Shown piece by piece: positions 1 through 9,854 of a DNA stretch of 9,854 bases. Positions within the stretch are counted from its first letter, which is position 1, and each line of letters opens with the position of its first letter. The notes under the pieces are model-generated. The model made no database searches. It was given only the letters and a program-made list of their open reading frames with translations, and was not told where the DNA came from. The position numbers were made by a program, and so were the translations under genes. Source of the stretch: a virus (Duplodnaviria > Heunggongvirae > Uroviricota > Caudoviricetes). Where the stretch lies: the IMG/VR virus record IMGVR_UViG_2877973648_000003, one strand, 5' to 3'.

Positions 1-477
1 TTATTCAAGCAGGCTACGCAACATCCAGGCAGTTTTCTCATGTAACTGGATACGTTGTGTAAGCAGATCTGCTGTGGCTTCATCATTCGCATTATTAACG
101 AGCGGGAACAGGGAGCGTGCAGTTTTAACCACGGTCTCCTGGCCCTGGACAAGATTTTCAATCATGTTTTTTGCTGCCGGAATATCCTTATCTTCATTAA
201 CCGCTGTTAAACGTGAAAATTCATGATATGTGCCGGGCGCGAAGCATCCGAGCGAGCGTATACGTTCAGCGATATCATCAACGGCAGTGGCCAGCTCATT
301 GTATTGATTTTCAAACATTAAATGTAAGCTGTTAAACATGGGGCCAGTTACATTCCAGTGATAGTAATGTGTTTTTATATACAGGGTATAGGTGTCAGCA
401 AGAAGCCGGGACAGGCCGTCTGCAATCTCCACCCGGGATGATTCAGCAATACCAATATCAATGATTTGTTTACTCAT
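1..477 (-). CDS. Dps-family (ferritin-like DNA-protection) protein, 158 aa, apparently host-encoded
   Basis: Complete minus-strand ORF (ATG complement at 475-477, TAA complement at 1-3). The translation has the ferritin-like Dps signature region (HW-N-V-G...F...LH...E) and Dps-like length. SD-like AAGAGG lies upstream of the start. It is not identical to E. coli Dps as I recall it. Confidence 0.8.
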
Positions 478-551
478 AACTACCTCTTACACGGTTTCAG
501 TGGAATATACGATATGCGATTATTCTTTCCGGTCTGAGCAAAACACGCCTC

Positions 552-566
552 AAATTTTTATAATAA
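552..566. other. attL core (lambda-type attachment site, host/prophage junction)
   Basis: AAATTTTTATAATAA followed by GTTGGCATTATAAAAAAGCATTGCTTATCAATTTGTTGCAACGAACAGG matches the recalled lambda attP core and P' arm (lambda core GCTTTTTTATACTAA). The left three bases differ, as expected for a host arm. One C-to-A difference lies in the overlap region (TTTATAA versus TTTATAC). Confidence 0.8.
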
Positions 567-574
567 GTTGGCAT

Positions 575-645
575 TATAAAAAAGCATTGCTTATCAATTT
601 GTTGCAACGAACAGGTCACTATCAGTCAAAATAAAATCATTATTT
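575..645. promoter_or_regulatory. attL P' arm: IHF-type site and Int arm-type binding sites (P'1-P'3)
   Basis: CAGGTCACTAT (612-622), CAGTCAAAAT (623-632) and AAAATCATTAT (about 634-645) fit the Int arm-type consensus. The upstream TTATCAATTTGTTGCAACGAACAGG resembles the lambda H' IHF site. The int stop lies 74 bp from the core, as in lambda. Confidence 0.75.
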
Positions 646-1710
646 GATTTCAATTTTGTCCCACTCCCTGCCTCTGTCATCACGATACTGTGATGCCATG
701 GTGTCCGACTTATGCCCGAGAAGATGTTGAGCAAACTTATCGCTTATCTGCTTCTCATAGAGTCTTGCAGACAAACTGCGCAACTCGTGAAAGGTAGGCG
801 GATCCCCTTCGAAGGAAAGACCTGATGCTTTTCGTGCGCGCATAAAATACCTTGATACTGTGCCGGATGAAAGCGGTTCGCGACGAGTAGATGCAATTAT
901 GGTTTCTCCGCCAAGAATCTCTTTGCATTTATCAAGTGTTTCCTTCATTGATATTCCGAGAGCATCAACATGCAATACTGTTGGGATGGCAATTTTTACG
1001 CCTGTTTTGCTTTGCTCGACATAAAGATATCCATCTACGATATCAGACCACTTCATTTCGCATAAATCACCAACTCGTTGCCCGGTAACAACAGCCAGTT
1101 CCATTGCAAGTCTGAGCCAACATGGTGATGATTCTGCTGCTTGATAAATTTTCAGGTATTCGTCAGCCGTAAGTCTTGATCTCCTTACCTCTGATTTTGC
1201 TGCGCGAGTGGCAGCGACAGGGTTTGTTGTTATATGGCCTTCAGCTATTGCCTCTCGGAATGCATCGCTCAGTGTTGATCTGATTAACTTGGCTGACGCC
1301 GCCTTGCCCTCGTCTATGTATCCATTGAGCATTGCCGCAATTTCTTTTGTGGTGATGTCTTCAAGTGGAGCATCAGGCAGACCCCTCCTTATTGCTTTAA
1401 TTTTGCTCATGTAATTTATGAGTGTCTTCTGCTTGATTCCTCTGCTGGCCAGGATTTTTTCGTAGCGATCAAGCCATGAATGTAACGTAACGGAATTATC
1501 ACTGTTGATTCTCGCTGTCAGAGGCTTGTGTTTGTGTCCTGAAAATAACTCAATGTTGGCCTGTATAGCTTCAGTGATTGCGATTCGCCTGTCTCTGCCT
1601 AATCCAAACTCTTTACCCGTCCTTGGGTCCCTGTAGCAGTAATATCCATTGTTTCTTATATAAAGGTTAGGGGGTAAATCCCGGCGCTCATGACTTCGCC
1701 TTCTTCCCAT
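640..1710 (-). CDS. int: Tyrosine integrase, lambda Int (356 aa)
   Basis: The translation is near-identical to lambda Int as I recall it (MGRRRSHERRDLPPNLYIRNNGYYCYRDPRTGKEF...REWDKIEIK) and has the catalytic R/K/H/R/H/Y residues including the LLGH and Y motif near the C-terminus. It overlaps xis as in lambda and is adjacent to the att site. Confidence 0.97.
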   Translation of the reverse strand: MGRRRSHERRDLPPNLYIRNNGYYCYRDPRTGKEFGLGRDRRIAITEAIQANIELFSGHKHKPLTARINSDNSVTLHSWLDRYEKILASRGIKQKTLINYMSKIKAIRRGLPDAPLEDITTKEIAAMLNGYIDEGKAASAKLIRSTLSDAFREAIAEGHITTNPVAATRAAKSEVRRSRLTADEYLKIYQAAESSPCWLRLAMELAVVTGQRVGDLCEMKWSDIVDGYLYVEQSKTGVKIAIPTVLHVDALGISMKETLDKCKEILGGETIIASTRREPLSSGTVSRYFMRARKASGLSFEGDPPTFHELRSLSARLYEKQISDKFAQHLLGHKSDTMASQYRDDRGREWDKIEIK

Positions 1711-1906
1711 TTCTGATCCTCTTCAAAAGGCTACCTGTTACTGGTCGATTTAAGTCAACCTTTACCGCTGATTCGTGGAACAGATACTCTCTTCCATCCT
1801 TAACCGGAGGAGGGAATATCCTGCACTCGCGTACCCATCGACGAACTGTTTCAAGGCTTCTTGGGCGTCGCTGGCGTGCGTTCCACTCCTGAAGTGTCAA
1901 GTACAT
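1688..1906 (-). CDS. xis: Excisionase Xis (72 aa)
   Basis: MYLTLQEWNARQRRPRSLETVRRWVRECRIFPPPVKDGREYLFHESAVKVDLNRPVTGSLLKRIRNGKKAKS matches lambda Xis in sequence and length. Its 3' end overlaps the int start. Confidence 0.95.
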   Translation of the reverse strand: MYLTLQEWNARQRRPRSLETVRRWVRECRIFPPPVKDGREYLFHESAVKVDLNRPVTGSLLKRIRNGKKAKS

Positions 1907-1930
1907 CGCAAAGTCTCCGCAATTACACGC

Positions 1931-1953
1931 AAGAAAAAACCGCCATCAGGCGG
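1931..1953 (-). terminator. Putative intrinsic terminator (5-bp GC stem CCGCC/GGCGG, 4-nt loop, then six Us on the minus strand)
   Basis: On the minus strand: GCCGCCUGAUGGCGG followed by UUUUUUCUU. The stop codon of the 55-codon ORF sits in the loop. The stem is short, so confidence is moderate. Confidence 0.4.
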
Positions 1954-2113
1954 CTTGGTGTTCTTTCAGTTCTTCAATTCGAATATTGGTTACGTCTGCA
2001 TGTGCTATCTGCGCCCATATCATCCAGTGGTTATAACAGTCGTTGATGTTCTCTGCTTCGATAACCCTGTTGAATGGCTCTCCATTCCATTCACCTGTGA
2101 CTCGGAAGTGCAT
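1946..2113 (-). CDS. Small hypothetical protein (55 aa), positional counterpart of the lambda small ORF next to xis
   Basis: Found by my own translation; it is below the size cutoff of the ORF track. MHFRVTGEWNGEPFNRVIEAENINDCYNHWMIWAQIAHADVTNIRIEELKEHQAA. Same size and position as the lambda 55-codon ORF right of xis. Confidence 0.6.
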   Translation of the reverse strand: MHFRVTGEWNGEPFNRVIEAENINDCYNHWMIWAQIAHADVTNIRIEELKEHQAA

Positions 2114-2124
2114 TTATCATCTCC

Positions 2125-2151
2125 ATAAAACAAAACTCGCCGTAGCGAGTT
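2125..2151 (-). terminator. Putative intrinsic terminator downstream of the 142-aa gene
   Basis: On the minus strand: AACUCGC-UACG-GCGAGUU (7-bp stem) followed by UUGUUUUAU. It lies between the stop of the 142-aa ORF (2197) and the start of the 55-codon ORF (2113). Confidence 0.5.
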
Positions 2152-2196
2152 CAGATATAATTTCCACCAAAGGCAGTAGTTGCTTGATGCTAAGAA

Positions 2197-2625
2197 TTAT
2201 TCAATATCTATTCCTGTAATCTCTTTTATCTTTTTCCTTGCAAAGCCTTTTGCTAGTGATTTTGAAACACTCATAAGTGTACTAATTCCCTCATCCTTAA
2301 AGTTTGTTTTTATAGCTTGCCAGACATCCTTTTGACGTAAGTCAGCAATAAAATCATGCCCTCTTGCTGTCAACCTCAGTGGTACTTCGATCCAACTATA
2401 TCCAACACCTTCCCCTAACGCTTTGGACAATATATGACCGAACCCAGGTTTTCCATCAACCCTGACTATTAATTCGTAGTCACATAATAATCGCATATGG
2501 AAAATAAAATCTTGGTCATATCTATTAAAGCCATTATCCTCTAGTTCACTAAGCATCGTGTCAGGGCCACGAGTTTTTTCGAATGCGATAAGTAGATCTT
2601 TTAGATATTGCTGGTCTAATTTCAT
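2197..2625 (-). CDS. Hypothetical protein, 142 aa, AT-rich accessory (moron-like) gene of unknown function
   Basis: Clean ORF with a strong SD (GGAGGCG) 5-7 nt upstream of the ATG. Base composition is visibly more AT-rich than the flanking lambda-like genes (by eye, not computed). No signal peptide or TM segment is evident. I do not recognise the family with confidence. Confidence 0.6.
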   Translation of the reverse strand: MKLDQQYLKDLLIAFEKTRGPDTMLSELEDNGFNRYDQDFIFHMRLLCDYELIVRVDGKPGFGHILSKALGEGVGYSWIEVPLRLTARGHDFIADLRQKDVWQAIKTNFKDEGISTLMSVSKSLAKGFARKKIKEITGIDIE

Positions 2626-2635
2626 TGCCGCCTCC

Positions 2636-2647
2636 GTGACATGTCAC
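2636..2647. promoter_or_regulatory. Perfect 12-bp palindrome GTGACATGTCAC in the 28-bp gap between the 112-aa and 142-aa genes
   Basis: Read directly from the sequence: the motif equals its own reverse complement. It sits just upstream of the SD of the 142-aa gene. Confidence 0.35.
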
Positions 2648-2653
2648 AGAGAT

Positions 2654-2992
2654 TTATATCATTAATTTTGTTTCGTGCCAGCCTTTGGTCACCCAGCATT
2701 GTGAGTCACCATTACACGGGCATGAATTAACAGGAACTCTCTCGCCGCACTTACCGCACCGTTTTCTGCTGATCGATTTTATACGCCAGCGCACACGTGC
2801 ATCATCCTGGCGGCTCAGTAACGCGATGTACTCACCAAACTCGCAAGGCGCACGCCTGAAGCGACGCGTGGCACAGTTACGCTCCAGCATTTCAATTTCC
2901 TGAGCATCAAGTACAAGCTCCAGCTTACGCATACCGGATGATGCTTGCTTGGCTCTCTGATCGGCTTTGTGCTCTGTTGCTGATTTAGCCAT
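2654..2992 (-). CDS. Small basic Cys-rich protein (112 aa), probable zinc-ribbon; occupies the position of lambda ea8.5
   Basis: ORF with an SD-like AGGAAAA upstream. The C-terminal part has CGKCG...CPC...C spacing typical of a zinc ribbon. Base composition resembles the lambda-like backbone. Any identity with Ea8.5 is positional inference only. Confidence 0.55.
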   Translation of the reverse strand: MAKSATEHKADQRAKQASSGMRKLELVLDAQEIEMLERNCATRRFRRAPCEFGEYIALLSRQDDARVRWRIKSISRKRCGKCGERVPVNSCPCNGDSQCWVTKGWHETKLMI

Positions 2993-3188
2993 TCTGCTTT
3001 TCCTGCATCAGGAGAAAGACAATCATGGCGGCGCGGATACTTCCGGTATCTTTATACGCGATATTCCCCTTCAATGGCACATACAAGAAGAGAGCCATCA
3101 ACAGGAGTGATTGAGGAATCGACAACCAGCAACGCTTAATTATCTATAGTGTCGTATTTGCTTCATAAAATATGGCGAATAACACAAA

Positions 3189-3220
3189 GCCCGCAGCAGC
3201 TCATTGTGCGGGCTTTTCTT
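3189..3220 (-). terminator. Putative bidirectional intrinsic terminator (GCCCGCA...TGCGGGC, 7-bp stem) downstream of the secreted-protein gene
   Basis: Stem 3189-3195 pairs with 3207-3213 around an 11-nt loop. It is followed by TTTTCTT on the plus strand and UUUGUGUU on the minus strand, about 70 nt past the stop at 3286. Confidence 0.55.
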
Positions 3221-3285
3221 ATACCTACTTCCTAGAGATAATTCTATGGAGGCATTAAATCAATACTGTCATTGGTAATATCATA

Positions 3286-3900
3286 TTATCTAAAAGTCTT
3301 TCCACTTTTAACATCTAGGTATATTCTGTTCGACAACGTCATTCCTCCGCAATATGTGAAATAGATGTTTTCACCCTTATTGCTTGATGCCATCCACCCT
3401 CCGATTTCCTTAAAATCGCTTTCCGTGCAGACCCCTTCATTTATTAACTTCCTAGCTGCCGAAGAAAACTCTTTTTTGTATATACGGTAGTCATCAGATC
3501 CTTTGATTAAAGTATCATCTCCGCTCGCATTTTCAGCAGGATCTGATGGCCTTTCACTGCTAAGATCACTAAATTTAACCCATTCTGAAAACTTGCCATT
3601 AACGATTCCATTTTTTCTTGTGCAGGATTTATTACCTTCTTTAATATATTCGCTTTCCCCTCCAACACATGAGGCTGAATATGGCTCAGTTATACGAACC
3701 CATTCACCTTTTTTTTCTAGAAAATCTACGCCTTCCCTGAAAAATAGTTTCCCAGCCACTCCACATTTACTTGAAGGGCAGGTATGTCTTTCCGTTCGAT
3801 CAACAACAACCCATAGTTTTGATTCATTTTTTGCCATTGCCGATGGTATTTGAGATGAGACAATTAACGTAAGCCCTAAAATTAGTATTGATTTTTTCAT
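3286..3900 (-). CDS. Secreted or periplasmic Cys-rich protein, 204 aa, unknown function (AT-rich moron)
   Basis: N-terminus MKKSILILGLTLIVSSQIPSAMA-KNE is a classical Sec signal peptide with an AXA cleavage motif. The mature part is hydrophilic with about 8 Cys. SD AAGGAAA lies 6-7 nt upstream of the ATG. The gene is AT-rich and has its own terminator. It does not match Bor, Lom or Cor as I recall them. Confidence 0.7.
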   Translation of the reverse strand: MKKSILILGLTLIVSSQIPSAMAKNESKLWVVVDRTERHTCPSSKCGVAGKLFFREGVDFLEKKGEWVRITEPYSASCVGGESEYIKEGNKSCTRKNGIVNGKFSEWVKFSDLSSERPSDPAENASGDDTLIKGSDDYRIYKKEFSSAARKLINEGVCTESDFKEIGGWMASSNKGENIYFTYCGGMTLSNRIYLDVKSGKTFR

Positions 3901-4198
3901 TGTAATTTCCTTTTACTTTTTACAAAGCGTTTAATCATGGCTGATTATCTCTAAGTGTAGTAACAGCCTTGTGCGAAACATGTTACCAAATCGCCATTTC
4001 AGTGTATCCGCAGTTAGGCTGCCACTTCAAGGATTCCTAATTACATGGTACGTAAGCGTAAAATCCCGTTGGTTGGCGGGTAATAACTCTGATCAAATCT
4101 CCCTTGTCTTTTGCTCTTACGTATGCAGCTCTTGTGTATTCAACCCAGGCCTCCAGTTCAGCAATACGCTTACTTCCATCCGAGATAACACCTTCTAC

Positions 4199-4450
4199 TC
4201 ACGCTGCTCGTTGAGTTTTGATTTTTGCTGTCTCCAGCTCAACACGCAGTTTCCCCACCGTTAGCGCAATATCCTCGTTCTCCTGGTCGCGGCGTTTGAT
4301 GTATTGCTGGTTTCTTTCCCGTTCATCCAGCAGTGTCAGCACAATCGATGGTGTTACCAGCTCATGGAAAAGGTCCGCGTCAAATCCCCAGTTGTCAGGC
4401 ATTGCCTGCTCTGCCGCTTCACGCAGTGCCTGAGAGTGAATTACGCTCAC
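4199..4450 (-). CDS. ea22: Ea22-like protein, N-terminal segment (83 aa) ending at an in-frame TGA; the reading frame stays open for 53 further codons (4040-4198) to a TAG at 4037-4039
   Basis: MSVIHSQALREAAEQAMPDNWGFDADLFHELVTPSIVLTLLDERERNQQYIKRRDQENEDIALTVGKLRVELETAKIKTQRAA resembles the lambda Ea22 N-terminus as I recall it. After the TGA, the same frame reads VEGVISDGSKRIAELEAWVEYTRAAYVRAKDKGDLIRVITRQPTGFYAYVPCN. Its 3' end overlaps the start of the TraR-like gene. Confidence 0.55.
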   Translation of the reverse strand: MSVIHSQALREAAEQAMPDNWGFDADLFHELVTPSIVLTLLDERERNQQYIKRRDQENEDIALTVGKLRVELETAKIKTQRAA

Positions 4451-4668
4451 TTCGAACCTCTCTGTTTACTGATAAGCTCCAGATCTTCCTGGCAACTTGC
4501 ACAAGTCCGACAACCCTGAACGGCCAGGCGTCTTAGCTCATCTATGGGATCGCCACACTCACAACAATGAGTGGCAGATACAGCCTGGTGGTTCAGGCGG
4601 CGCATTTTTATTGCTGTGTTGCGCTGTAATTCTTCAATTTCTGATGCTGAATCAATGATGTCTGCCAT
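4447..4668 (-). CDS. DksA/TraR-family C4 zinc-finger protein (73 aa), lambda Orf73/TraR-like
   Basis: 73 aa with paired Cys-x2-Cys motifs (CCEC ... CRTCASC) and the size typical of TraR-family proteins. It sits where lambdoid phages carry their TraR homologue in the early-left operon. Confidence 0.75.
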   Translation of the reverse strand: MADIIDSASEIEELQRNTAIKMRRLNHQAVSATHCCECGDPIDELRRLAVQGCRTCASCQEDLELISKQRGSK

Positions 4669-4766
4669 CTTCCATTAATCCCTGAATTGTTGGTTAATAC
4701 GCTTGGGGGTAAATGCGAGCAATAAAAAAGGAGCCTGTAGCTCCCTGATAATTTTGCTTTTCATGT

Positions 4767-5048
4767 TCATCGTTCCTTAAAGACGCCGTTTAACATGCCG
4801 ATTGCCAGGCTTAAATGAGTCGGTGTGAATCCCATCAGCGTTACCGTTTCGCGGTGCTTCTTCAGTACGCTACGGCAAATGTCATCGACGTTTTTATCCG
4901 GAAACTGCTGTCTGGCTTTTTTGATTTCAGAATTAGCCTGACGGGCAATGCTGCGAAGGGCGTTTTCTTGCTGAGGTGTCATTGAACAAGCCCCATGTCG
5001 GCAAGCATAAGCACACAGAATATGAAGCCCGCTGCCAGAAAAATGCAT
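4767..5048 (-). CDS. Small early-left-operon protein (lambda orf61-like); start ambiguous (93 aa from 5048, or 71 aa from the ATG at 4982)
   Basis: ORF in the expected position and orientation. The 5048 start lies 10 nt after the upstream gene stop and has no obvious SD. The internal ATG at 4982 overlaps the TGA of a 5-codon upstream mini-ORF (ATGA), a translational-coupling arrangement. Confidence 0.5.
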   Translation of the reverse strand: MHFSGSGLHILCAYACRHGACSMTPQQENALRSIARQANSEIKKARQQFPDKNVDDICRSVLKKHRETVTLMGFTPTHLSLAIGMLNGVFKER

Positions 5049-5058
5049 TCAGTGGTTG

Positions 5059-5250
5059 TCATACCTGGTCTCTCTCATCTGCTTCTGCTTTCGCCACCAT
5101 CATTTCCAGCTTTTGTGAAAGGGATGCGGCTAACGTATGAAATTCTTCGTCTGTTTCTACTGGTATTGGCACAAACCTGACTCCAATTTGAGCGAGGCTA
5201 TGTGCCATCTCGATACACGTTCTTAACTCAACAGGAGATGCTTTGTGCAT
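5059..5250 (-). CDS. Small early-left-operon protein, 63 aa (lambda orf63-like)
   Basis: 63-aa ORF with a G-rich SD (GGGGGG) upstream. Size and position match lambda orf63. Confidence 0.6.
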   Translation of the reverse strand: MHKASPVELRTCIEMAHSLAQIGVRFVPIPVETDEEFHTLAASLSQKLEMMVAKAEADERDQV

Positions 5251-5368
5251 ACAGCCCCCCGTTTATTATTTATCTCCTCAGCCAGCCGCTGTGCTTTCAG
5301 GGGATTTCTGATAACAGAAAGGCCGGGAAATACCCAGCCTCGCTTTGTAACGGAGTAGACGAAAGTGA

Positions 5369-5593
5369 TCGCACCTACCGGAAACAACGCGCGGCGCTCT
5401 TTACTCGTTCGTCTATAACGTGGGCGCAGGCAATTTCAGAACATCTACTCTTCTTCGCAAAATAAACCAGGGCGATATCAAGGGCGCATGTGACCAGCTA
5501 CGTCGCTGGGCATACGCTGGCGGTAAGCAATGGAAAGGCCTGATGACTCGTCGTGAGATTGAGCGTGAGGTCTGTTTGTGGGGGCAACAATGA
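5369..5593 (+). pseudogene. 3' remnant of an endolysin gene (T4-type/P21-type lysozyme R); N-terminal catalytic part absent and frameshifted upstream
   Basis: In-frame translation ...[71 protein letters not shown] matches the C-terminus of E. coli cryptic-prophage lysozymes as I recall them. There is no start codon. An in-frame TGA at 5366-5368 and a shifted frame lie upstream. The stop overlaps the Rz start (ATGA). Confidence 0.75.
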
Positions 5594-6054
5594 GCAGGGT
5601 AACCGCGATTATCTCCGCTCTGGTTATCTGCATCATCGTCTGCCTGTCATGGGCTGTTAATCATTACCGTGATAACGCCATTACCTACAAAGCCCAGCGC
5701 GACAAAAATGCCAGAGAACTGAAGCTGGCGAACGCGGCAATTACTGACATGCAGATGCGTCAGCGTGATGTTGCTGCGCTCGATGCAAAATACACGAAGG
5801 AGTTAGCTGATGCGAAAGCTGAAAATGATGCTCTGCGTGATGATGTTGCCGCTGGTCGTCGTCGGTTGCACATCAAAGCAGTCTGTCAGTCAGTGCGTGA
5901 AGCCACCACCGCCTCCGGCGTGGATAATGCAGCCTCCCCCCGACTGGCAGACACCGCTGAACGGGATTATTTCACCCTCCGGGAACGACTGGTAATGATG
6001 CAGGCCCAACTTGAAGGTGCTCAGCAATACATAACCGAGCAGTGTTTAAAGTAA
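5590..6054 (+). CDS. Rz: Spanin, inner-membrane subunit Rz (154 aa)
   Basis: [60 protein letters not shown]... matches lambda Rz as I recall it, with an N-terminal TM segment and coiled-coil region. The ATG overlaps the endolysin stop. The ORF track's longer 5578 start is an in-frame GTG upstream. Confidence 0.9.
5810..5995 (+). CDS. Rz1: Spanin, outer-membrane lipoprotein subunit Rz1 (61 aa), embedded in the +1 frame of Rz
   Basis: [24 protein letters not shown]... has a lipobox (VVGC) and a proline-rich mature part. It is fully nested inside Rz in another frame, as in lambda. Confidence 0.85.
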
Positions 6055-6191
6055 AATCTTAACTACAATATGATTCATTTTGATGATTGTTTCATAAGGA
6101 ACAGTGAAGTAAGATCTAAGAGGAGTTAAATTTTATACAGTATAATCATAATATTGCAGCAAGGTGGTTATAATTGAAAGAATATTTAGAT

Positions 6192-7649
6192 ATGAATACA
6201 TCTCATGTAAGAGTTGTTACTCATATGTGTGGGTTCCTGGTTTGGCTCTATAGTCTTTCAATGTTGCCACCAATGGTTGTAGCATTGTTTTATAAAGAAA
6301 AAAGCCTGTTCGTTTTCTTTATAACTTTCGTTATATTTTTTTGCATTGGTGGCGGAGCGTGGTATACAACTAAGAAATCTGGCATTCAATTACGTACCCG
6401 TGATGGGTTTATTATAATTGTAATGTTTTGGATTTTGTTTTCTGTTATTAGTGCATTCCCTTTATGGATTGACTCAGAACTTAATTTAACGTTCATTGAT
6501 GCTCTGTTTGAAGGGGTTTCTGGAATAACAACAACAGGAGCAACTGTAATTGATGATGTTAGTTCATTACCTCGGGCATATTTGTACTATCGGTCACAGT
6601 TAAATTTTATAGGTGGTTTAGGAGTTATTGTTCTGGCGGTTGCTGTATTGCCATTATTGGGTATTGGTGGTACAAAGCTTTATCAGTCAGAAATGCCGGG
6701 GCCATTTAAGGATGACAAACTCACTCCCCGCCTGGCCGATACGTCACGGACACTGTGGATAACTTATTCTTTATTAGGTATTGCTTGTATTGTCTGTTAT
6801 AGACTTGCAGGAATGCCTTTGTTTGATGCTATTTGTCACGGGATTTCCACAGTTTCGCTTGGTGGTTTCTCAACTCATAGCGAGAGTATCGGATATTTTA
6901 ATAACTATTTGGTTGAGCTGGTGGCTGGTTCTTTTTCCCTGCTATCGGCTTTCAACTTCACTCTTTGGTATATTGTTATTAGCAGGAAAACGATAAAACC
7001 TTTAATCAGAGATATTGAACTTCGTTTCTTTCTGTTAATAGCCTTAGGGGTGATCATTGTTACCTCTTTCCAGGTCTGGCATATAGGTATGTATGACTTG
7101 CATGGAAGTTTTATTCATTCGTTTTTTCTTGCCAGCTCCATGCTCACTGATAATGGTTTAGCTACGCAGGATTATGCAAACTGGCCCACGCACACGATAG
7201 TGTTTTTGCTGTCGTCAAGTTTCTTTGGGGGATGTATAGGTTCAACTTGTGGTGGAATTAAGTCACTTCGATTTCTTATACTTTTCAAACAAAGCAAACA
7301 CGAGATAAATCAGCTTTCTCATCCCAGAGCGTTGTTGAGTGTAAATGTAGGAGGGAAGATAGTTACAGATCGTGTAATGAGGTCTGTATGGAGTTTCTTT
7401 TTTCTTTATACTCTCTTCACGGTGTTTTTTATACTGGTGTTAAATGGTATGGGATATGATTTTCTTACATCATTTGCAACAGTGGCTGCATGTATTAATA
7501 ATATGGGATTAGGTTTTGGGGCTACTGCATCGTCATTCGGAGTGCTTAATGACATTGCAAAATATTTAATGTGCATAGCTATGATTCTTGGTCGCCTTGA
7601 AATTTATCCTGTTATTATATTGTTTTCAGGTTTTTTTTGGCGCTCCTAA
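6192..7649 (+). CDS. trkG: TrkH/TrkG-family potassium uptake protein (485 aa from the ATG at 6192; the ORF track extends to a TTG at 6174)
   Basis: Polytopic membrane protein with the repeated GxGG-type selectivity-filter segments (FEGVSGITTTGATV, STVSLGGFSTHSES, GSTCGGIKSLR, ACINNMGLGFGATASS). It is near-identical to E. coli TrkG as I recall it. The gene is AT-rich and lies immediately downstream of Rz/Rz1, the same arrangement as in the Rac prophage. Confidence 0.9.
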   Translation: MNTSHVRVVTHMCGFLVWLYSLSMLPPMVVALFYKEKSLFVFFITFVIFFCIGGGAWYTTKKSGIQLRTRDGFIIIVMFWILFSVISAFPLWIDSELNLTFIDALFEGVSGITTTGATVIDDVSSLPRAYLYYRSQLNFIGGLGVIVLAVAVLPLLGIGGTKLYQSEMPGPFKDDKLTPRLADTSRTLWITYSLLGIACIVCYRLAGMPLFDAICHGISTVSLGGFSTHSESIGYFNNYLVELVAGSFSLLSAFNFTLWYIVISRKTIKPLIRDIELRFFLLIALGVIIVTSFQVWHIGMYDLHGSFIHSFFLASSMLTDNGLATQDYANWPTHTIVFLLSSSFFGGCIGSTCGGIKSLRFLILFKQSKHEINQLSHPRALLSVNVGGKIVTDRVMRSVWSFFFLYTLFTVFFILVLNGMGYDFLTSFATVAACINNMGLGFGATASSFGVLNDIAKYLMCIAMILGRLEIYPVIILFSGFFWRS

Positions 7650-7734
7650 TATATGGCTGATTTATAATTGTGAGTTTAATATTATATTGACTCACTCATT
7701 GATCCAATACCTAACTTTACCAGCAACACCTCCG

Positions 7735-7770
7735 CCCCCAGTAGCACTGGCTGCTGGGGTGCGTTTTATT
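7735..7770 (+). terminator. Putative intrinsic terminator downstream of trkG
   Basis: CCCCAG...CTGGGG stem (7736-7741 pairing with 7754-7759) followed by TGCGTTTTATT. The loop is long at 12 nt, so confidence is modest. Confidence 0.35.
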
Positions 7771-7786
7771 CATAAAGCAAGGCTGT

Positions 7787-8218
7787 ATGAGCGAGAAATT
7801 AAAGATAGTCTATCGCCCATTACAAGAATTGTCACCGTATGCGCACAACGCCAGGACGCACAGTACTGAGCAGGTGGCACAACTGGTAGAAAGTATTAAG
7901 CAATTCGGCTGGACTAATCCGGTGCTGATTGACGAAAAGGGCGAAATTATTGCGGGTCACGGTCGTGTTATGGCGGCTGAAATGCTCAAAATGGATTCTG
8001 TTCCGGTCATTGTTCTGTCTGGCCTGACGGATGAGCAGAAAAAGGCGTACCGCCTGGCAGATAATCGCCTACCGATGAATGCTGGCTGGGATGAAGATCT
8101 GTTGCGGATGGAGCTGTCGGACCTAATCAATGCTGATTTTGATGTCTCCCTGACAGGCTTCGGCCCGACAGAAATTGATGAACTGTTGACGGATGTTTTG
8201 CCCGGTATCGGGCCTTAA
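7787..8218 (+). CDS. ParB-like nuclease-domain protein (143 aa), probably a C-terminally truncated fragment
   Basis: N-terminal ParB/Srx-type domain (YRPLQELSPYAHNARTHS...IIAGHGRVMAA...YRLADN). Its TAA stop lies 3 bp from the convergent tfa stop with no terminator between them. Prophage ParB-like proteins are usually larger. Confidence 0.65.
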   Translation: MSEKLKIVYRPLQELSPYAHNARTHSTEQVAQLVESIKQFGWTNPVLIDEKGEIIAGHGRVMAAEMLKMDSVPVIVLSGLTDEQKKAYRLADNRLPMNAGWDEDLLRMELSDLINADFDVSLTGFGPTEIDELLTDVLPGIGP

Positions 8219-8221
8219 TTT

Positions 8222-8749
8222 TTACTCTGGTTTTTGTGGCCATTCAGGATTTGCCGTATCCACACGGCTGACCAGAACACTGTAGCGTTCCCATGCTTCC
8301 AGTCGTGTGCGTTCCTCGTCTGTTGCCATATTCAGCCTGACAGCGCGTTCCAGCGGTTGGATGACTGATTCAGCTTCGGAAAGCAATGCGGCCTTTTGTG
8401 ATTCGGCCTGTTGTTGTTGCTCGTCTGCCGTATAAATCCGTTTAACCACAGCTCCGTCCCTAAACATCCACTTACTGGAATCATCAGCGCAGCGGTTGGC
8501 TGTAATATCTGGAACCTCAACGACGCTATAACCTTCAGGGTTAAGCGTGGAGGCATCTTTGGTGATGGCGACAATAATATTATTTGCATCGTAAACAATC
8601 TTTATTGTGTCTGGCTGAAAGTTTTTCACTTCCTCATACCAGTTTTTTCCGTCTTCGGACCATAACCAGATAACATCAAAATTCTTTGTTAGCTGATATT
8701 GTTCTTTTGTTTTTGGATTTCCAGACTTAATATTTTTTAAATGCTGCAT
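8222..8749 (-). CDS. tfa: Tail fibre assembly protein Tfa (175 aa)
   Basis: Tfa-family translation. It lies directly downstream of the tail-fibre cassette with a 3-nt gap, the typical stf-tfa arrangement. Confidence 0.85.
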
Positions 8750-8752
8750 AAA

Positions 8753-9715
8753 TTACACCTGTACGACGTTATACCATGTGCCATTGATGTATTTTTGTAT
8801 TGGTCTGAATACTGCCGGATCATCGCCATCAACTGCACCGATAATGCCAAGCCCCGTAATTGCATGACCTGATTTCTCATACATCACGCCTTTTTGCATA
8901 GTCTGAACAACACGTGTACCAAGTCGGACATCTCTCACATAACGTGAGTCAAAATTACCATAATTGCCGGGAATAACTTGCGCACCGCAAAGCCAGTTGC
9001 CATTGTTGTCCATGTACGCCTGACCATCGGTGCCATTGGCTGTCCTTGAGTTATTAATCATGTAGATGCCAAATTGCTTATTCCCCAGTCCACCAATCAT
9101 AAATTTGCGATCAGCGTGGTCCTGACGAAGTAATGCCTGCGCACCATCGGTGGATACCGCATTGCGTCCCAAAATAACATTCTGGTCACGCATATGAATC
9201 CACATGCCGGTACTACTGTTAATTGCAAAACGGTTTGCAAATATATCCCCTGTAACATCAAGACCATGCCCCATGCTTATCCGACCAGTTCTGAGATTAA
9301 GCGTAAAGGGGCGTAGTGGCCCTATATCACCATTTTCTCCCTCATTCTCTCGTGTAGGGATGATATGCAGGCATTCTTCAGAACGACGAAAAATAGCACC
9401 AAAAGATGAATTAAATATCCTCAGTGCATTGACTGTCGATATTTTTACTTCACTGCTGAAAAGGGCTTTAACAAGGACAGACAAAGCATCCCATTTAAGA
9501 GTCATCAGGTCTTTTGTTGTGGTGCTCTGGCGGCTTCTCCATTTGAAATATTCATTGCCGTTGTCGCCTGTTTCAAACCACATGTATGAATCAGTGTCGC
9601 TGTCGGCATTATTTTTAAAACCAATCTTTGCCCAGTCAGTATTTCTAATCCAGGCAAGGATTGAGTCGTTTTCAAAAGTAAGCCCACCGGACAAGGTATC
9701 GCCATTCTTTTGCAC
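8753..9715 (-). CDS. stf: Side tail fibre C-terminal variable cassette (320 codons), without its own N-terminal constant region
   Basis: Tail-fibre-like C-terminal sequence (NGDTLSGGLTFENDS..., Gly/Asn/Thr-rich). The open frame begins at a GTG (9713-9715) only 10 codons after an in-frame TAA that lies inside the crossover site. It is immediately adjacent to the pix-like site and tfa follows. This is the Sv'-U' arrangement of Gin/Pin/Cin invertible segments. Confidence 0.8.
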   Translation of the reverse strand: MQKNGDTLSGGLTFENDSILAWIRNTDWAKIGFKNNADSDTDSYMWFETGDNGNEYFKWRSRQSTTTKDLMTLKWDALSVLVKALFSSEVKISTVNALRIFNSSFGAIFRRSEECLHIIPTRENEGENGDIGPLRPFTLNLRTGRISMGHGLDVTGDIFANRFAINSSTGMWIHMRDQNVILGRNAVSTDGAQALLRQDHADRKFMIGGLGNKQFGIYMINNSRTANGTDGQAYMDNNGNWLCGAQVIPGNYGNFDSRYVRDVRLGTRVVQTMQKGVMYEKSGHAITGLGIIGAVDGDDPAVFRPIQKYINGTWYNVVQV

Positions 9716-9739
9716 GGCGTTCCTGGCCCTGTTTACCGT

Positions 9740-9765
9740 TTCCTGTAAACCGAGGTTTTAGATAA
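9740..9765. other. Gin/Pin/Cin/Hin-family DNA invertase crossover site (gix/pix-like)
   Basis: TTCCTGTAAACCGAGGTTTTAGATAA is a near-exact match to the recalled gix site TTCCTGTAAACCGAGGTTTTGGATAA. It consists of imperfect inverted 12-bp half-sites around a central dinucleotide and lies between the fibre cassette and the invertase start. Confidence 0.75.
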
Positions 9766-9819
9766 TGGCGGTTTCTGGCCTGCATGGCATGATTTGTGCT
9801 TTTGGACGGGAGATTCAGC

Positions 9820-9854
9820 GTGCTGATTGGCTATGTAAGGGTATCAACAAATGA
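9820..9854 (+). CDS. pin: Serine DNA invertase (Pin/Gin family), first 11 codons only; continues beyond the window
   Basis: GTG-CTG-ATT-GGC-TAT-GTA-AGG-GTA-TCA-ACA-AAT translates to (M)LIGYVRVSTN, the conserved N-terminus of Pin/Gin/Hin invertases including the catalytic Ser region. SD GGGAG lies 7 nt upstream. The TGA formed by the last three bases of the window is out of frame. The call rests on very little sequence. Confidence 0.6.
   Translation, partial: MLIGYVRVSTN

Follow-up and report, generated by a model that had tools for sequence, protein, structure and literature searches.

The stretch of DNA analyzed here (9,854 nucleotides, referred to as the window) carries, at positions 478 to 640, what is very probably (we put it at about 85%) a hybrid attachment site, made up of a plasmid arm, an overlap and a P' arm, that a lambda-type Int would have produced at a secondary site with a cryptic gal-bio prophage as the donor, followed later by truncation by IS26 and by spread. 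Both parents of this junction were identified, and its breakpoint lies inside the Int core. The single variant base of the overlap is that of the plasmid target, the right ends of the plasmid copies are formed by IS26, and copies with the same junction are distributed over several genera. From the position of the breakpoint we infer that Int catalyzed the joining, and the prophage remnant would have been excised before it was reintegrated.

Two kinds of DNA meet in the window, and their homologies share a short stretch. Homology to plasmids extends from 1 to 566, and homology to phage and chromosome starts at 555 and continues onward. Since the 12 bases from 555 to 566 (TTTTTATAATAA) are common to the plasmid site and, with one mismatch, to the lambda core, the crossover lies within that stretch, which contains the 7-bp overlap. 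The 15-bp core equivalent AAATTTTTATAATAA (552-566, plus strand), compared directly with GCTTTTTTATACTAA of lambda, matches it at 11 of 15 positions. The overlap, or strand-exchange region (557-563, plus strand), whose placement inside the core we take to be established for lambda, reads TTTATAA, whereas lambda, phage Chlobot and the chromosomal attL and attR described below all have TTTATAC; six of the seven bases are identical to the phage attP, and the sole mismatch is at 563, just as the initial annotation of this DNA had stated.

To the left of the core, the plasmid-specific (Delta) arm (478-554) is the retained part of the spacer between the Dps and PaaI genes and forms the region upstream of Dps. 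This arm is identical to the empty site (locus L001 and 168 plasmid records), and sequence comparison revealed no similarity of it to lambda or to the ybhC-side B arm of the gal-bio attB. The CTGCTTT of the primary-attB B arm that adjoins ybhC is absent from the junction, and the left arm consists instead of plasmid DNA beside Dps. The earlier claim that the host arm differs from the E. coli gal-bio attB is thus correct with respect to gal-bio, but the arm is not host chromosome; it belongs to a plasmid accessory module. On the plus strand upstream of the Dps ATG, the sequence reads ...CACGCCTCAAATTTTTATAATAA/GTTGGCATTATAAAAAAGC..., and the core begins 74 nt and ends 89 nt from that ATG (477), in agreement with the original estimate of about 75 bp.

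The right side of the junction is 100% identical to lambda attP from 567 onward. The lambda P' arm (562-643, plus strand) contains a C' core-type site, AATAAGTTG (562-570), an IHF H' site, TATCAATTTGTTG (592-604), and three arm-type sites, P'1 (613-622), P'2 (623-632) and P'3 (634-643), all on the plus strand; these are putative sites, with names and positions that are presumably those of lambda attP. Next to them lies int (640-1710, minus strand), which encodes a lambda-type tyrosine integrase identical to lambda Int at 353 of 356 residues by BLASTP (substitutions H164P, A245V and I248V). In the same alignment, R212, K235, H308, R311, H333 and Y342, which we take to be the catalytic residues in the numbering of lambda Int, are all present. 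The excisionase gene xis (1688-1906, minus strand; from the open reading frame list, annotated as WP_001303849.1) is an intact reading frame. At the DNA level, int-xis shows 98.9% identity to lambda, and the nearest free phage, Chlobot, is 99.9% identical across int-xis. The lambda likeness of the P' arm and int, first proposed by inspection and borne out by alignment to lambda attP, cannot be chance, and the recombinase is present and, from its sequence, looks intact.

The gene to the left of the junction (1-477, minus strand) encodes a Dps-family (ferritin-like) protein of 158 amino acids, as had been suggested (Pfam PF00210, E = 2e-29), and is annotated as WP_000043177.1, "Dps family protein," in every matching record. 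It is part of a plasmid accessory module that also includes genes for a methyltransferase, an FAD oxidoreductase, an ArsR/SmtB protein and a PaaI thioesterase, as well as a NifX-like gene. When window positions 1 to 640 were compared by megablast with 5426 complete E. coli genomes, two classes of full-identity match were observed: one spans 1-640, and the other ends exactly at 566, the last core base, and continues as ...TTTTTATAATAA/CCAGGTACACCTG... into the 3' end of a PaaI-family thioesterase gene (locus L001). Using a 601-bp probe across the empty site, and counting records in which it was fully covered, we found the site (...CAAATTTTTATAATAA/CCAGGTAC...) intact in 168 plasmid records from Klebsiella, Citrobacter, Escherichia, Enterobacter and Raoultella; it is also intact in a chromosomal island of ABWA45 (...CAAATTTTTATAATAA/CCAGGTACACC...). 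The 40-bp sequence of the plasmid site is GCCTCAAATTTTTATAATAACCAGGTACAC. The unoccupied site could thus be reconstructed from relatives lacking the prophage, as the initial annotation had proposed. That annotation had also held that an unchanged host-side sequence in prophage-free relatives would count against integration. The sequence is indeed unchanged in the 168 plasmids, but an unoccupied att site should look exactly like this, so these intact sites do not refute integration.

In its empty state, the Dps-PaaI spacer measures 114 bp, and the look-alike core is found in it at a distance of 89 bp from the Dps ATG and 25 bp from the stop codon of PaaI. Sequences of 12 bases that differ from the lambda core at no more than one position are expected about 0.1 times per 10 kb. 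By chance, a few look-alike cores are therefore expected on a plasmid of ~300 kb, and 100 to 300 kb should hold one; the presence of such a target on these plasmids needs no special explanation. In plasmid 0H26 (NZ_CP081783.1, 303.8 kb), a filled site (39816-49669) and an empty site (75983-76583) are found ~26 kb apart, so the Dps module is duplicated there and provides a built-in comparison of the filled and empty states.

The other parent is chromosomal. Window positions 555 to 9854 are nearly unchanged in the chromosomes of E. coli E2, I4, 027_SK3, ABW_S38 and S43. In E2, the remnant lies between ybhC and ybhB-bioA, which is the classical lambda attB locus, and is bordered by an attL (GCCTGCTTTTTTATACTAAGTTGG) and an attR (CAGCTTTTTTATACTAACTTGAGCG) that are both canonical, with TTTATAC. 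The window differs from the E2 copy at only three positions in 9300 bp (563, 3054 and 3573), and 563 is the only position at which the AH04 copy departs from E2. The unoccupied plasmid site has the same A as the window here; since the chromosomal copy, Chlobot and lambda are all canonical at this position, the A comes from the plasmid target and not from a variant phage. A variant phage core was likewise rejected on the grounds that the attP cores of Chlobot and lambda are both canonical. Two wastewater E. coli strains, 027_SK3 (NZ_CP067311.1 / NZ_CP067312.1) and ABW_S38 (NZ_CP067265.1 / NZ_CP067266.1), hold both presumed substrates, namely, the chromosomal gal-bio remnant and a ~300-kb plasmid with an empty Dps-PaaI site.

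These comparisons bear on the idea, raised as an alternative in the initial annotation, of a lambda-like phage with a different native attB. According to this idea, the Dps-PaaI site would be the native primary attB of a lambda-like lineage with TTTATAA, and the window would contain an ordinary attL. The overlap at the junction does differ from that of lambda, and the arm is not that of gal-bio. However, at gal-bio the identical remnant is bordered by an attL and an attR that each contain TTTATAC, its Int is 99% identical to lambda Int, and Chlobot, its nearest relative across int-xis, has a canonical attP. Moreover, the site is empty in 168 plasmids, all filled cases represent one junction and one remnant, and searches of the plasmid set and of the E. 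coli, GTDB and metagenome collections turned up no attR-type junction for this site. We rejected this idea and regard it as extremely improbable. Integration at a secondary site with one overlap mismatch, which had been named as the other possibility, is supported.

Secondary sites of lambda integration have been recognized since the 1970s; insertions at such attachment sites were reportedly described by Shimada, Weisberg and Gottesman in 1972 and by Rutkai et al. in 2003. The present case has the two elements of such an event, in that an empty target exists and the crossover maps to 555-566, with the overlap at 557-563 inside it. Lambda secondary sites have been mapped genome-wide (Tanouchi and Covert 2017, PMC5605937), and the more than 300 sites share a conserved T at -1, -2, -3, -5 and -6, C at -7 and -10, and A at +5 and +6. 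From -10 to +10 relative to the overlap center, the plasmid target reads TCAAATT/TTTATAA/TAACCAGG. Counted against the published text of the motif, as distinct from a matrix, six of the nine conserved positions are present (T at -1, -2, -3 and -5; A at +5 and +6), and three are missing (A at -6, A at -7 and T at -10). The right half-site (bottom strand, CCTGGTTAT) matches B' (CAAGTTAGT) at six of nine positions. The left half-site (TCAAATTTT) matches B (CTGCTTTTT) at four of nine and lacks the CTT triplet, which earlier work reports as needed at both core sites; a left half-site that is such a poor core site for Int speaks against the account that we favor.

The junction could also have arisen without Int, either by illegitimate or short-homology joining over the 12 bp, by an IS26 event or as an assembly chimera. 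The near-identity of 12 bp could in principle allow microhomology-mediated joining, and the region is full of IS26. On the other hand, out of ~11.6 kb of prophage, the breakpoint falls exactly at the Int crossover core, and neither an IS end nor a target-site duplication was found at 555-566. In addition, more than 20 complete assemblies, independent of one another and originating in several countries and genera, show exactly the same bases at the junction, as does a metagenome contig; such recurrence excludes an assembly artifact. We therefore consider an origin without Int very unlikely. A breakpoint in the strand-exchange region, combined with an intact P' arm and an int gene that is 99% that of lambda, is, judged from the sequences, the signature of Int and not that of an IS or of illegitimate joining.

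The initial annotation had suggested that a matching attR be sought further to the right. None is there: in every plasmid copy, the right end is cut by IS26 inside a pin-like gene, and in the window the IS26 begins just past position 9854. The terminal repeat of IS26 (GGCACTGTTGCAAA) directly abuts the remnant at the equivalent of E2 position 21375 or 21415. These two breakpoints are 40 bp apart, and the IS26 copies have opposite orientations (locus L003, 24930; locus L008, 21970). The breakpoint at 21375 is found in 0H26, K. michiganensis, TC24 and the metagenome contig, and that at 21415 is found in AH04 and S43. AH04 has the longer prophage arm and is also the closest in sequence to the chromosomal parent, a pattern that, taken together with the two breakpoints, suggests stepwise erosion by IS26. 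Further copies of IS26 lie to the left of the Dps module, at variable distances. The part of E2 between the pin-like gene and attR that is lost from the plasmid copies comprises a tail-fiber-assembly fragment, a diguanylate cyclase gene and the P arm. Without an attR, the fragment cannot excise. The diguanylate cyclase, a sensor protein, is encoded at 21666-22997 of the E2 locus, between the tail-fiber remnant and attR and hence in the position of the b region, and is cargo that the plasmid copies lack.

The reciprocal product of the proposed reaction was searched for as well. The predicted P-O-Delta' junction is GTTCAGCTTTTTTATA[A/C]TAACCAGGTACACC, and in the reciprocal sequence GCTTTTTTATA[A/C]TAACCAGGTACACC the preceding bases would be GTTCA if attP had been the partner and GCCT if attL had been. 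A composite query holding both possible reciprocal products (the B arm or the P arm, plus the overlap and the PaaI side) retrieved no reciprocal junction from the plasmid set or from the 5426 E. coli genomes, its matches being confined to the PaaI side of the empty site, counted twice, or to an ordinary ybhC arm. The exact pattern GCTTTTTTATAMTAACCAGGTACACC gave 0 matches in GTDB representative genomes and metagenomes. A pattern for the Dps junction that admitted C at 563 (M at 563) yielded 0 matches in genomes and one in the metagenomes, a contig that carries A; no sibling segregant with C was seen at the Dps junction in these genomes and metagenomes.

We propose the following course of events. 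The source would be a defective lambdoid prophage at the canonical attB, with intact int and xis and canonical attL and attR, and the target would be a chance look-alike of the core in the 114-bp PaaI-Dps spacer of a widespread plasmid module. The remnant would leave the chromosome as a circle through attL x attR, and the rebuilt attP would then recombine with the plasmid site. In lambda, the top strand is exchanged at the left of the overlap and the bottom strand at the right, and a heterology at +3 gives a heteroduplex in both products, after which either base may be found. The heterology at overlap position +3 would accordingly have produced a heteroduplex that was segregated or repaired to the plasmid base, A at 563, and the surviving junction with the target base would fit this model. 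IS26 would subsequently have deleted the rest of the pin-like gene, the diguanylate cyclase gene, the P arm and the right junction, leaving a locked fragment of ~9.4 kb for which excision is no longer possible. This fragment would then have traveled in IS26-rich mosaics on several plasmid backbones and in chromosomal islands. We favor excision followed by attP x site because this is the standard integrative reaction and because the two IS26 breakpoints suggest that a longer insert was truncated on independent occasions or step by step. Since no reciprocal junction was found, the route (attP x site versus attL x site) cannot be proved.

In the second of these routes, the plasmid would have been fused to the chromosome by or inside the prophage (for example, through IS26 cointegration at the pin-like gene), and Int would then have recombined attL (B-O-P') with the plasmid site in cis. 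The plasmid released in this way would carry one IS26 and the left 9.4 kb of the prophage in addition to the Dps-side junction. This scheme has the attraction that two steps explain both boundaries, Int the left one and IS26 the right one; 027_SK3 and ABW_S38 possess both of its substrates, and S43 shows that such plasmids can sit at the chromosomal gal-bio locus. Nevertheless, attL x an attB-like site is no standard, efficient lambda reaction, and a search of the 5426 E. coli genomes did not reveal B-O-Delta', the chromosomal product that this route predicts. The two IS26 breakpoints with opposite orientations fit later truncations at least equally well, and the canonical attL and duplicated prophage arms of S43 are the signature of homologous recombination. 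We judge the attL route to be unlikely, though less so than the alternatives dismissed above, and continue to prefer excision followed by integration of the rebuilt attP.

The S43 arrangement deserves description in its own right. In the record of the E. coli S43 "chromosome" (NZ_CP010237.1, 5010595-5043711; locus L005, 205000-250000), a ~237-kb IncHI-type plasmid lies between ybhC and ybhB-bioA, with the left part of the remnant present on both sides of it. One copy has the canonical attL and ends at IS26; the other has the Dps junction and continues to attR. This looks like an Hfr-type insertion by homologous recombination through the captured fragment. S43 as the original cointegrate made by Int was considered and rejected, given that the canonical attL is kept beside ybhC and the left part of the prophage is doubled. 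Both S43 copies share seven int-xis single nucleotide polymorphisms that are absent from the other carriers, for which gene conversion or a polishing or assembly artifact is possible, and the arrangement itself could reflect assembly or polishing of a 5- to 9-kb repeat. AH04 was examined as another possible chromosomal copy at gal-bio, a placement that was rejected; its copy lies in an IS26-rich, plasmid-derived island near pitB/yghS (NZ_CP081706.1, 806000-871000), which carries repA, ParD/ParE, sucrose phosphotransferase system, type I restriction-modification and glg genes.

The junction, with A at 563, is the same in every carrier. The carriers are ~20 complete E. coli records and one metagenome contig, as well as plasmids of K. 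michiganensis, K. quasipneumoniae and Enterobacter roggenkampii; plasmids of Enterobacter kobei and Citrobacter freundii carry copies whose left ends are cut short. The plasmid backbones vary (IncA plus IncFII in K. michiganensis, IncHI-type transfer genes in S43), and the surroundings of the carriers are rich in IS26, IS110 and IS5. This distribution indicates a single capture, followed by passive movement within mosaic regions.

The remainder of the window (1907-9854) is the rest of the defective lambdoid remnant and is nearly identical to the chromosomal remnant of E2. It contains small early-left genes, a truncated rrrD, Rz/Rz1, trkG, a ynaK-like ParB_N gene, a tail-fiber assembly gene, a truncated tail-fiber gene and the start of a truncated pin-like recombinase gene. 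At ~9.4 kb, the remnant is defective, lacking immunity, replication and head genes and most tail genes. At 5382-7649, a truncated lysozyme gene (rrrD fragment), Rz (5578-6054, with an embedded Rz1-like reading frame at 5810-5995) and trkG (6174-7649) follow directly after the early-left genes, and the whole immunity, replication and Q region is missing. The block from 5578 to 9854 resembles what we take to be the order rzpR-rzoR-trkG-ynaK ... stfR-tfaR-pinR of Rac. Within the early-left region, a reading frame of 204 amino acids (3286-3900, minus strand) begins with a signal-peptide-like sequence, MKKSILILGLTLIVSSQIPSAMA, and has no Pfam match; its product looks like a moron-like secreted protein. 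The A/G difference between carriers at 3573 falls inside this reading frame.

The initial annotation had further claimed that the prophage replaces most of the upstream regulatory region of the Dps gene. This did not hold up: 89 of the 114 intergenic bp stay beside Dps, consisting of 77 plasmid-specific bp and the 12 shared core bases. The insertion does separate Dps from the codirectional upstream NifX-like and PaaI genes, and int-xis is now located upstream of Dps in the same orientation. The tI/sib terminator of lambda belongs to the P arm, a part that the plasmid copies lack. Since int-xis and Dps have the same orientation and no terminator was predicted between them, read-through into Dps would be possible. 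A scan of the Dps strand for sigma-70 promoters gave nothing convincing in either the filled or the empty state, so that these scans say nothing about rewiring; judged from the arrangement of the genes, an effect of the insertion on Dps expression is possible.

With respect to function, we consider it possible, though less likely than not, that a remnant that makes Int and Xis acts as a natural shuttle, carrying ~9 kb (int-xis, trkG and tail-fiber genes) onto conjugative plasmids in Klebsiella, Enterobacter and Citrobacter, supplying portable homology for an Hfr-like insertion of an IncHI-type plasmid at gal-bio, as in S43, and perhaps placing Dps under read-through from int-xis. A "dead" prophage whose int-xis-att module is, as its sequence suggests, still working could thereby move chromosomal DNA to plasmids, and fragments captured in this way can then cross genera and supply homology for fusion of plasmid and chromosome. 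A prophage-derived K+ transporter gene, trkG, is now plasmid borne in Klebsiella and Enterobacter. With both parents available and the variant base traceable to the target, the window appears to document cleanly how lambda Int has acted on a secondary site in nature, and it supports the textbook view that mismatched overlaps are tolerated at a low frequency and that the difference is resolved from the heteroduplex. For annotation, it means that a lambda int-xis beside Dps on a Klebsiella or Citrobacter plasmid indicates neither a lambda-like phage of that host nor a new attB. Defective prophages and IS26 mosaics are commonplace, and no new mechanism is revealed here. What is specific is the combination of a natural event, a plasmid target, a cryptic prophage as the donor, both parental sites being identifiable, and spread across genera. 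We found no prior description of the plasmid-borne fragment in the literature searched, coverage of which was incomplete.

Compared with known systems, the junction most resembles the secondary sites of lambda, with which it shares a lambda-type Int, an intact P' arm, a crossover in the 7-bp overlap, a T-rich overlap with A at +5 and +6, and degenerate core-binding sites. As at those sites, there is one overlap mismatch with attP and the recombinant carries the target base, which is what segregation of a heteroduplex predicts (a saf-type outcome). It differs in that the event was natural and not experimental, that the target was a plasmid module and not the E. coli chromosome, that the donor was a cryptic prophage and not an infecting phage, and that only one junction is left, IS26 having taken the other, with the product now residing in other genera. 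Relative to the canonical lambda attL at gal-bio, the P' arm, the C' site and the position and orientation of int-xis are identical, whereas unrelated plasmid DNA takes the place of the B arm, the overlap reads TTTATAA and there is no partner attR. The late region of Rac in K-12 presumably has a succession of Rz/Rz1, trkG, ParB_N, tail-fiber and pin-like genes similar to that of 5578-9854; in contrast to Rac, the block in the window is fused to a lambda-type int-xis-att module, and this fusion is found at the lambda attB and not at the Rac site. Finally, grounded prophages and IS26-bounded mosaics of resistance plasmids likewise have IS26 on one side and move passively with plasmid and IS26 traffic, but the other boundary here is a precise site-specific junction and not the end of an IS.
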